DNA from: Euglena gracilis | Taxonomy: Eukaryota | Length of the DNA: 20,000 nt | Direction: 5' to 3' | NCBI GenBank assembly: GCA_039621445.1 | Contig: CP154954.1 | Location: 4,187,497 to 4,207,496, forward strand | Shown here: positions 18,521 to 20,000 of the stretch, piece by piece | Position numbering within the stretch: the stretch's first letter is position 1 | How the letters are laid out: every line of letters starts with the position of its first letter | Notes under the pieces: generated by a model | Databases searched by the model: none | What the model saw: the letters and a program-made list of their open reading frames with translations, nothing else | Told to the model about the DNA's origin: nothing | Program-made: the position numbers and the translations under genes

Positions 18521-18521
18521 G

Positions 18522-20000
18522 GGAGGGGATCGCAGGTGGGCCCCCCTCCGCTGCGCTCTCATACCAACCCGTGGGATCGCCGGCGAGACCAGCGCCGCGG
18601 CGGACGCGGCGGCAGCGGCGGCAGAAGGAGACCATGACCAGCACGGACACGGAGGCGGCAACATCGCAGGTGTGCCACCCCCGGCCTGCCGGAGCTGGTA
18701 TCTCCGGCCCTCCAGTTCGGGCCGCACCGGCTGGAGGTGGGCGTGCAAAACGTGCGACACCTCCCCCCCTGCGGCGGCACCCCCCCACCTCCCTCCCCCC
18801 TCCTCCCCCAACCCACCCCCCCCAACCCCCCACCCTTCCCCAGCCATCCCCATCAAGAGAGATATTTCCGCAGTCCCTGCGGCTCGGGGAGCTTTCCCCG
18901 GGGTCCACCCAGAATTGCCTGGTGAGGTTTCTCGCACCCCCAGGCCTCCCCCCGAGCGCCCTCCCGGGCAACCCTCTTCCCGAAGGCCCCCCAGGCCGTC
19001 CCACTCCCGGGATGACCGCGCCCTCCCCATCGCCGAGCCCTACGACAAGCATGACCCCCAGCCGTCCCGCCACCGCCGCAACGAGGGGCAGTGGAGCTGG
19101 CAGGACCACCTGCAGTGGATGCAGCGCAGCTGTGGGCCGCGATCCTGGCGCAACAAGACCATGCGCAGGGTCCTGCAGCTCCGCTCTGCCGACCCGTGGG
19201 AAGCCCCCGGCTGGACTTACGCCCTCTTCCATTTCCCCACGGGGCGGTTCTACGTTGGGCAGACCACGCGGAAGGTCCACAAGCGGACCAAGGAGCACTG
19301 GTGGAGCCGGGGGCGCTGCGCCGACGCCCTGCACGACGCCCTGGCCAACGACCCCACCCCCTTCTCCTTCCTCATGATCCCCATCGAGAGGCTCCCCTCA
19401 CCCGACAGCTTCCCCCGGGCCGACCGCCCCGCCCTCGCCCGCCGGGATGCCCTCGCCCGCGAGCACAAGTGGGTGGGCCTCCTCAACTCCATGTGGCCCC
19501 ATGGCTTCAACGCCGCCTACCCCGGCTTCCCCGTCAGCCGGAAGGTGCTCCGCCGCCAGCACACCCTCCCCAGCCCCGCCCCCGCACCCACCTCCCAAGG
19601 CGACCCTCCCCCCAGCCCGACCAAGTGGGCTCCGTCGCTGCCACCAAGGGGACTCCAGCGCCCTGGGGCAAGGCGCGGGGCGCTCCGGCCACCTCTCGCT
19701 GGAGTGCAAGCTGGTGGAGCTCATCAAGGCGAAGAGGAAGGAGGCCCCCGAGCGGCAGTTCCTGAAGTTCTCCTACTCCAACAACGGCGCCCGCCACCTG
19801 GAGCTGCGCAAGGTGTTGCGGGGAGGAGGCCGTCTACAAGCTCCACCCCAACCCGGACGTCGCCGCCGCCATCATGGTCTGCGACAAGTTCGCCCCGCAG
19901 TGGCAGGCGTGGCTGTGCAACTACGCCCAGGTCTCCAGCGAGCTGGACGTGGCCGCCGCGCAGGCCGACGACCTCGAGGGCTGCCAGTGCCACACAGCCC
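18522..20000 (+). CDS. Retroelement ORF, partial and frameshifted: Pro-rich N-terminal region, GIY-YIG endonuclease, linker ending in CxC
   Basis: The frame with codons starting at positions divisible by 3 has no stop from 18342 to 20000. In-frame ATGs occur at 19119 and 19161. The homologous reading moves +1 at the G-run 19627-19629 (TKW/LRRCHQGDSSAL...LELRKVLR) and +1 again at the G-run 19820-19823 (/EEAVYKLHPNPD...CQCHTA). The true start is uncertain. Confidence 0.75.
19209..19511 (+). other. GIY-YIG endonuclease domain
   Basis: Manual translation: GWTYALFHFPTGRFYVGQTTRKVHKRTKEHWWSRGRCADALHDALANDPTPFSFLMIPIERLPSPDSFPRADRPALARRDALAREHKWVGLLNSMWPHGFN. It shows both Tyr motifs (WTY, YVG), the conserved Arg and His (RxxEH), the metal-binding Glu (RExxW) and the terminal PxGxN. 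Confidence 0.92.

Follow-up and report, generated by a model that had tools for sequence, protein, structure and literature searches.

A probable Penelope-like element copy with an N-terminal GIY-YIG nuclease at the end of a 20,000-nucleotide stretch of Euglena gracilis DNA

The DNA considered here is a stretch of 20,000 nucleotides from Euglena gracilis (GenBank assembly GCA_039621445.1, contig CP154954.1, positions 4,187,497 to 4,207,496 of the forward strand), referred to below as the window, and the object of interest is the block rich in guanine plus cytosine (GC) with which it ends. Bases 18526-20000 very probably represent the first (5') third of a decayed Penelope-like element copy whose GIY-YIG endonuclease (EN) precedes its reverse transcriptase (RT), the arrangement described for Naiad and Chlamys elements, and which belongs to a separate, long-stemmed lineage carrying the residues DRA in place of the usual DK motif. 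The nuclease-first design itself is already known, and the family of the window copy is a distinct lineage within that design.

The block stands out by its composition, with a GC content of 0.706-0.714 in the three 500-base bins covering 18501-20000, as opposed to 0.336-0.576 in the other 37 bins. It starts directly after a (GA)50 microsatellite, at which both the GC content and the word depth in sequencing runs jump. The element can be followed along the + strand through the segments listed here, where P0002 is the most similar protein found (see below).

18526 to 19010, + strand: 5' region of the element, GC-rich, rich in proline and in C runs (repeated in sequencing runs)
19011 to 19628, + strand: conserved N-terminal segment and GIY-YIG endonuclease, in frame 3 (tblastn with P0002, invariant columns, fold)
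About 19629, + strand: frameshift 1, an extra base in a G run (tggg), from frame 3 to frame 1 (frame comparison with P0002, KW / LERCH)
19630 to 19819, + strand: linker part 1, in frame 1, LRRCHQGDSSAL...SGHLSLECKLVELIKAKRKEAPERQFLKFSYSNNGARHLELRKVL (tblastn with P0002 residues 233-339)
19820, + strand: frameshift 2, an extra base in cgggg, from frame 1 to frame 2 (absent from most related copies)
19823 to 19999, + strand: linker part 2, in frame 2, EEAVYKLHPNPDVAAAIMVCDKFAPQWQAWLCNYAQ...LEGCQCHTA (tblastn with P0002 residues 325-387, 73% identity)

Frame 3 (19011-19628) reads ...LPIAEPYDKH...GWTYALFHFPTGRFYVGQTTRKVHKRTKEHWWSR...PIERLP...AREHKWVGLLNSMWPHGFNAAYP, with the nuclease core extending from GWTY at 19209 to GFN at 19511, and frame 1 (19630-19819) carries FLKFSYSNNGARHLELRKVL. 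After the nuclease the linker follows in the order FLKFSYSNNG...LCNY...CQC, the last being the diagnostic CxC motif, found in frame 2 at 19982-19990. Since two frameshifts split this reading over three frames of the + strand, the element leaves no trace in the track of open reading frames (ORFs). The first 485 bases, 18526-19010, are either a 5' untranslated region or a variable N-terminal extension; no in-frame ATG was found in the window copy ahead of the conserved LPIxEPYDKH start when the frame was read, and a blastn comparison of 18100-19010 with the loci of the relatives matched dinucleotide tracts alone, the 5' region being otherwise not conserved.

A phmmer search against 1.84 billion proteins returned 104 matches at E<=1e-3, of which 53 reach E<=1e-10 and 7 reach E<=1e-30. 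The best of them, P0002 (E 3e-85, 78% identity), matches the window by tblastn with E 7e-118 in three collinear pieces, 19011-19619 (+3), 19609-19854 (+1) and 19811-19999 (+2), its residues 22-237 being 73.6% identical to the nuclease segment. In an alignment of 20 rows comprising the window protein and its relatives, all invariant columns (Y56, Y67, G69, T71, R78, H82, E112, R136, E137, W140, P149, G151 and N153) are kept in the window protein, and hence the Y, R, H, E and N residues of the GIY-YIG site are present. The fold points in the same direction: the AlphaFold model of the 176 residues encoded by the window itself (mean predicted local distance difference test score, pLDDT, 83.9) is closest to the catalytic domain of I-TevI, which occupies ranks 1-3 (E 2.6e-3 to 7.2e-3, template modelling score, TM, of 0.75-0.79 relative to the target); no structure matched this model at E<=0.001. 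The nearest clusters in a protein atlas, used as a lead only, carry GIY-YIG, RVT_1, HTH_animal and DUF8422.

The earlier note on this DNA, which was made from the letters alone, had described a GIY-YIG domain complete with its catalytic residues, followed downstream by FLKFSYSNNG...LCNY...CQCH, with no RT motifs upstream of it, in an element that the ORF track does not reveal and that is far richer in GC than its surroundings. The conserved columns and homologues up to 78% identical bear out the domain, and the downstream strings are real, though they lie in other frames (1 and 2) than the nuclease. Concerning the upstream side, six relatives, four of them with RT parts, matched only 19011-19999 in tblastn, so no RT was found upstream in the window. 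The lower GC content of the surroundings and the split reading given above agree with what had been noted.

The close relatives, which provide the evidence on the rest of the element, are proteins from metagenome assemblies. Wider homologue searches likewise gave almost only metagenome or assembly proteins, and the only organism names there were one EukProt label (Rmarinus), two labels of metagenome-assembled genomes and one mollusc protein. P0003, 73% identical in the nuclease, runs on past the CxC motif into the first RT motifs. After CxC, the proteins P0003, P0004, P0017, P0018 and P0031 display DGHVxxxD, KGKKF/YRL, xDDRAPHG, YNYGIWKxxKxKFRYIAGT, DFxTMYT, RRQxxGxPMGxPxAPQ, R[YF]IDD and [YF]LG, and P0018 and P0031 go on into FDR...RYP. 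In all, 13 long relatives share the order EN, CxC, DGHVxTxD, GxK[FY]R, a DK-type motif and RT1-7. A metagenome scan added 15 loci of relatives, among which L007 has an uninterrupted ORF of 1107-1116 amino acids with the same nuclease-to-RT order, ending about 190 amino acids past RT7 with no nuclease motif in that part. Of the 62 rows of a further alignment, 38 have a YVGQT-type nuclease motif ahead of CxC and none has one after the RT (the regular expression used misses the YVGET/YVGKT-type motif of the Naiad rows); 55 rows have residues at the CxC site, and 51 of these show the motif. The GxKF/Y motif, which appears in the relatives as KGKKFRL or KGKKYRL, would lie beyond base 20000 in the window copy. 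RT motifs A and B are separated by 84-99 amino acids (median 87) in 14 family members and by 85-90 in 9 Naiad-type rows, figures that come with no canonical element lacking the insert as calibration.

The loci also inform on how copies are arranged. In L005 and L008 the 3' RT part of one copy precedes the 5' nuclease part of a second copy in the same orientation, which forms head-to-tail pairs with an implied period of about 5.5 kb (L005) and about 5.4 kb (L008), and L010 holds an inverted pair. Searches with the Rfam families, the hammerhead included, gave no hit at the gathering score in the window and 14 loci, and within 17800-20000 no hammerhead came up even at E<=1. A search for a Euglena spliced-leader motif in the window and 19 loci was negative. 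In the tandem pair, the copy lying upstream (L009 1-765, equal to L008 1740-2504) ends in a frame of 254 amino acids with no Pfam match, which is either a C-terminal extension or a second ORF of the element lineage. Additional domains were observed in single relatives of the DKA and AT-rich groups introduced below: a C-terminal Ulp1-type peptidase C48 in P0178, an N-terminal chromodomain in P0169 and a long cysteine-rich C-terminal extension in P0086.

The relation to known nuclease-first proteins was approached through P0191, a DKA row encoded on a contig of 2.2 Mb, which as a query found 1,151 proteins at E<=1e-10. One of these is named, the hypothetical protein FSP39_003163 of the bivalve Pinctada imbricata (P0316), with GIY-YIG at residues 80-130 above the Pfam cut-off and RVT_1 at 525-738. 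A comparison by hhalign of six family members with nine Naiad-type proteins, P0316 among them, yielded a probability of 100% and an E-value of 3.3e-54 over 771 aligned columns, and the two profiles align collinearly all the way from nuclease to RT thumb, with an identity of about 20% between the family and the Naiad-type group in the RT. 

The fold of the RT was modelled on residues 485-1066 of L007 (582 amino acids, from CQC to the C-terminal helices), with a pLDDT of 93.7 and a predicted TM score (pTM) of 0.90. Foldseek against the Protein Data Bank (PDB) placed telomerase RTs at all of ranks 1-9 (E 3.3e-8 to 7.4e-7, TM about 0.4). VIA-align, which is independent of Foldseek, likewise put telomerase reverse transcriptases (TERTs) at ranks 1-3, with Z scores of 15.8, 14.3 and 13.5 and 392-433 aligned residues spanning 1-582, as compared with Z 9-13 over residues ~140-558 only for the RTs of diversity-generating retroelements (DGRs), retrons, DRT2, R2, group II introns and LINE-1.

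For the phylogeny, a quick IQ-TREE run was made on 60 rows and 543 columns, two rows short in the RT core being left out; the tree is unrooted and has no outgroup. The GC-rich family, with 16 rows, forms a clade with a support of 100 in the Shimodaira-Hasegawa-like approximate likelihood ratio test (SH-aLRT) and a stem of 1.4 substitutions per site. The 7 AT-rich rows join this clade with support 100, and on the opposite side of the tree stands a DKA group (37 rows) that holds the Naiad-type subclade. The proposal of a divergent member of the nuclease-first clade, made in the earlier note, finds support in the motif order, the hhalign comparison with the Naiad-type profile and the RT fold, all of it from relatives, and the suggestion of a new family agrees with the clade on this unrooted tree. 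That note had also expected GHxxTxD soon after CQC, then a DKG or IxxxDK motif and an RT with YxDD; the relatives do show the first and the last, as DGHVxTxD and R[YF]IDD, but the DK motif reads DRA.

Several observations weigh against the identification as a nuclease-first Penelope-like element of a separate lineage. The window ends 9 bases past CQC, and the RT of the window copy would lie beyond base 20000. Pfam stays below threshold on the window protein (GIY-YIG, E 0.04, 14.6 bits against a cut-off of 22.6), as it does on L007, where both GIY-YIG (residues 202-237) and RVT_1 (857-913) fall below the curated cut-offs. A sequence profile of 13 relatives against the PDB gave no telomerase and no significant match, the best being a defence RT at E 0.031, and the likeness to telomerase is therefore seen from the fold comparison only. 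The tree, unrooted, was built with no named Chlamys, Neptune, Penelope/Poseidon, Hydra or TERT sequences. Every one of the 14 GC-rich family members that cover the site has DRA as its DK-type motif, and not DK[GA], with DKA in 37 of the other aligned rows and DKL, DKT or DKS in the 7 AT-rich rows; judged from the aligned sequences, DRA would be a conservative K-to-R variant rather than the literal motif. RNA reads over the element are sparse, 0-1.6 per bin when 5-6% of two runs was read, too few to claim or deny transcription. Finally, the dinucleotide tract near the 5' edge reads GA on the coding strand in the window and CT in the loci L006, L008, L009 and L012 (see below).

The window copy itself is dead and unable to move, since it has two frameshifts, two internal deletions and no in-frame start. 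One deletion, of 39 bases (13 amino acids), lies at about 19188-19195, where other copies carry 31 additional letters at the 19188/19195 joint. The other lies near 19666-19679, where about 22 amino acids (about 66 bases) are missing, visible as a gap of 25 positions in the tblastn alignment of P0002; the loose ends of other copies at 19666 and 19679 read the missing WLQQHVP-type segment. The extra base at 19820 is left out by contigs accounting for 6,419.7 of 10,094 depth in data set X1 and for 2,339.8 of 2,339.8 in data set X12, which comes from an independent study. The same genome has less damaged copies. Over 18532-20000 the word depth sums to 3,652-88,754 in X1 and reaches 11,157 in X12; in the unique flank, contig depth is 33-53 (X1) and 18-35 (X12) and summed depth about 35-95 (X1). 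Word depth is not equal to copy number, and the abundance of the family is accordingly given as hundreds-fold only. The GC content at third codon positions (GC3) is 0.93-1.0 in the coding parts of the element.

Other explanations of the block have to be weighed against an element continuing past base 20000. It is unlikely, if not to be dismissed, that the locus holds a front fragment only, with no RT following because a deletion, a nested insertion or an assembly break cuts or interrupts the element soon past 20000. The genome is very rich in nested repeats, this copy has already suffered two internal deletions and two frameshifts, and the sequence read ends at base 20000. However, according to the available part of Craig et al. 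2021 (PMC8557442), truncation in target-primed retroelements is normally 5' and not 3', and a copy that has kept its 5' end should therefore usually be full length; the word depth, moreover, is high up to the last bin of the window.

Two further possibilities concern the nature of the block as a whole. An origin in foreign DNA, contamination or a chimeric join is highly improbable: the GC content does step from about 45% to 71% exactly at the microsatellite, and no read contig bridges (GA)50, yet flank and element both occur in runs of at least 17 studies that all bear one organism label, the words of the element are found at high depth in two independent DNA data sets (2018 and 2025), and a GC3 of 0.93-1.0 denotes a coding-type composition and not a different genome as such. 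Hardly any credence can be given to a host or domesticated gene, or to a free-standing homing-type nuclease that shares only a domain with retroelements. GIY-YIG domains also occur outside retroelements, the fold is closest to the homing nuclease I-TevI, and a scan of viral contigs produced only four weak matches, to GIY-YIG alone; against this, the identity of 70-78% continues through the retroelement-specific linker and, in P0003, into the first RT motifs, the frame is broken twice, and the word depth is several hundred times that of single-copy sequence.

If the Penelope-like identification is adopted, the life cycle may be outlined from the family as a whole. The RNA of the element would yield one protein, whose N-terminal GIY-YIG domain would nick chromosomal DNA, probably at or near GA/TC dinucleotide repeats, and the freed 3' OH would then prime reverse transcription of the element RNA by the C-terminal RT. 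Frequent 5' truncations and partial copies in head-to-tail or inverted arrangement would be the outcome.

The left edge of the element bears on the choice of target. The following features adjoin it.

18123 to 18150: (GA)14 microsatellite, left of the abundant 275-base repeat (Tandem Repeats Finder: period 2, 14 copies, 100% matches)
18151 to 18425, + strand: very high-copy 275-base repeat between two (GA)n tracts (word depth, RNA reads)
18426 to 18525: (GA)50 microsatellite adjoining the 5' edge of the GC-rich element (Tandem Repeats Finder: period 2, 50 copies, 97% matches)
In the loci of relatives, L008 3266-3288, L009 1527-1559, L006 375-394 and L012 307-339: (CT)n-like tracts

The (GA)50 tract is a candidate insertion target, or else the tail of the 275-base repeat upstream of it. 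In the window the conserved protein start (19011) lies 486 bases past (GA)50, and in L006, L008, L009 and L012 the (CT)n-like tract is 430-462 bases upstream of the same protein start. Homology among these loci extends on both sides of the (CT)n tract, and in L009 a long ORF is open across it. Because of the CT polarity on the coding strand of the relatives and of the homology on both sides, the dinucleotide tract could also be internal to the element, or mark the junction of units in tandem arrays.

The 275-base repeat reaches a summed word depth of 185,900-459,873 in X1, up to about 30 times that of the coding part of the element, with a single-copy flank at about 40. It is covered by 18-29 RNA reads per bin (data set X24), and another transcribed copy of it likewise ends in a short GA run. 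No tRNA and no Rfam match was found in it, and its predicted fold is not unusual (z -1.49). It could be the 3' end or pseudo-LTR (long terminal repeat) of the element, a non-autonomous derivative similar to a short interspersed element (SINE), or an unrelated repeat that landed in (GA)n. On one reading it would be a rider, or what a truncated copy further upstream has kept as its 3' end, which would fit the usual 5' truncation and pseudo-LTR structure. A bolder proposal, which we regard as doubtful, would make the DRA family a third deep nuclease-first branch residing in euglenids in hundreds of copies and targeting GA/TC, with the 275-base repeat, over-represented about 10,000-fold, as its own 3' module or non-autonomous rider. 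If true, the repeat would correspond, though free of a hammerhead, to the retrozymes parasitic on the Penelope-like elements of animals, and part of the unclassified third of Euglena repeats would be accounted for.

Two further features of the window lie apart from the element. At 8910-9172 and 13920-14196, and also at 9284-9497 and 15010-15283, there are long inverted repeats (128 nucleotides at 88%, 81 at 79% and 42 at 95%) separated by about 4.7-5.0 kb, as well as other matches, direct and inverted, separated by about 5.7 kb; the pattern resembles the ends of a DNA transposon of about 5.3 kb with terminal inverted repeats, or a nested pair. Over about 90 bases, 17895-17983, RNA reads (data set X21) diverge on the left at 17894 (47 reads) and on the right at 17983 (44 reads), which resembles either a small exon or part of some transcribed repeat with different RNA neighbours.

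Standard repeat annotation often misses nuclease-first Penelope-like elements. The E. gracilis genome annotation, in the portion available, lists no Penelope-like class and places 32.7% of the genome in unknown repeats (PMC11252322). In the available texts on Euglena, euglenids or Euglenozoa and Penelope-like elements, supplements being outside the scope, there is no report of such elements in euglenozoans, and the accessible part of Craig et al. 2021 (PMC8557442), where the nuclease-first type is described from animals, the green lineage and one slime mould, has no mention of euglen, excavat or discoba. The host group is hence probably one with no earlier report of nuclease-first elements. 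A distinct and abundant lineage in a euglenid-type genome would, if true, take endonuclease-bearing Penelope-like elements to another eukaryotic supergroup and support the view that telomerase-related retroelements are ancient, and the family would offer a way into the many repeats of Euglena-like genomes that are still unclassified. Its naturally occurring K-to-R change in the DK motif and its GA/TC-associated edge are both relevant to target choice by the nuclease and the CxC linker. We consider the interest of the case moderate, in view of the probable host group, the abundance and the possible link to GA microsatellites and the neighbouring 275-base repeat.

Compared with the known systems, the family shares with Penelope/Poseidon, Neptune, Nematis and Hydra a telomerase-like RT, a GIY-YIG nuclease and copies in tandem or inverted arrangement (the last seen in the relatives), but those elements have a C-terminal nuclease, usual hammerheads and no CxC linker, whereas in the family the nuclease motif is past the RT in none of the 62 rows and no hammerhead was found in the window or the 14 loci. 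TERT is the best structural match over the whole RT model of the family, including the region before the fingers and the C-terminal helical domain; it differs in that there is no detectable sequence match and the TM is only about 0.4, and in that the family has a nuclease, is repeated and gives no sign of a telomerase RNA-binding role.

Closer still are the two nuclease-first groups. With Naiad, represented by P0316 of Pinctada imbricata and its relatives, the family has in common the order EN, CxC, GHVxTGD, GxKYR, DKA (DRA in the family) and RT, collinear homology and a distance of about 87 amino acids from motif A to motif B. The difference lies in the cysteines: CX2-5CxxC and CCHH are found in P0207, P0269, P0310, P0323 and P0316, the Naiad-type rows having KCGxKNCKTC upstream of the nuclease and two cysteines inside its core (IECxLCGLIYVGET), and neither motif occurs in the window protein or the family. 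Both are Naiad features, and the absence of both is a hallmark of Chlamys, as given in the available part of Craig et al. 2021 (PMC8557442). Because its nuclease has neither CCHH nor CX2-5CxxC, the window family appears, from its motifs, to be Chlamys-like.

Chlamys comprises the Penelope-like elements with an N-terminal endonuclease of green algae, Chara, spike mosses and Physarum (Craig, Yushenova, Rodriguez and Arkhipova 2021, PMC8557442, in the part available). The family departs from it in the DK motif, which is DRA in 14 of 14 members and DK plus a variable residue in Chlamys, in the dinucleotide at the edge, GA/TC in the window versus the (CA)n or (C)n reported for Chlamys, and in its host, a euglenid; it also forms a separate long-stemmed clade on the unrooted tree, and the comparison is made by described features, no named Chlamys sequence being compared. 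These described features include an N-terminal GIY-YIG domain that keeps R, H, E and N and has neither CCHH nor CX2-5CxxC, a CxC linker, a GxKF motif (seen in the relatives) and, judging by the spacing, a possible insert between RT motifs A and B. The family further resembles Chlamys in showing no canonical hammerhead in the window and 14 loci, in its high GC content and copy number, perhaps in its tandem and inverted arrangements (seen in the relatives) and in the microsatellite at the edge of the window copy, and in its implied unit of about 5.4-5.5 kb (L005 and L008), which falls within the 3.3-8.2 kb reported for Chlamys elements.

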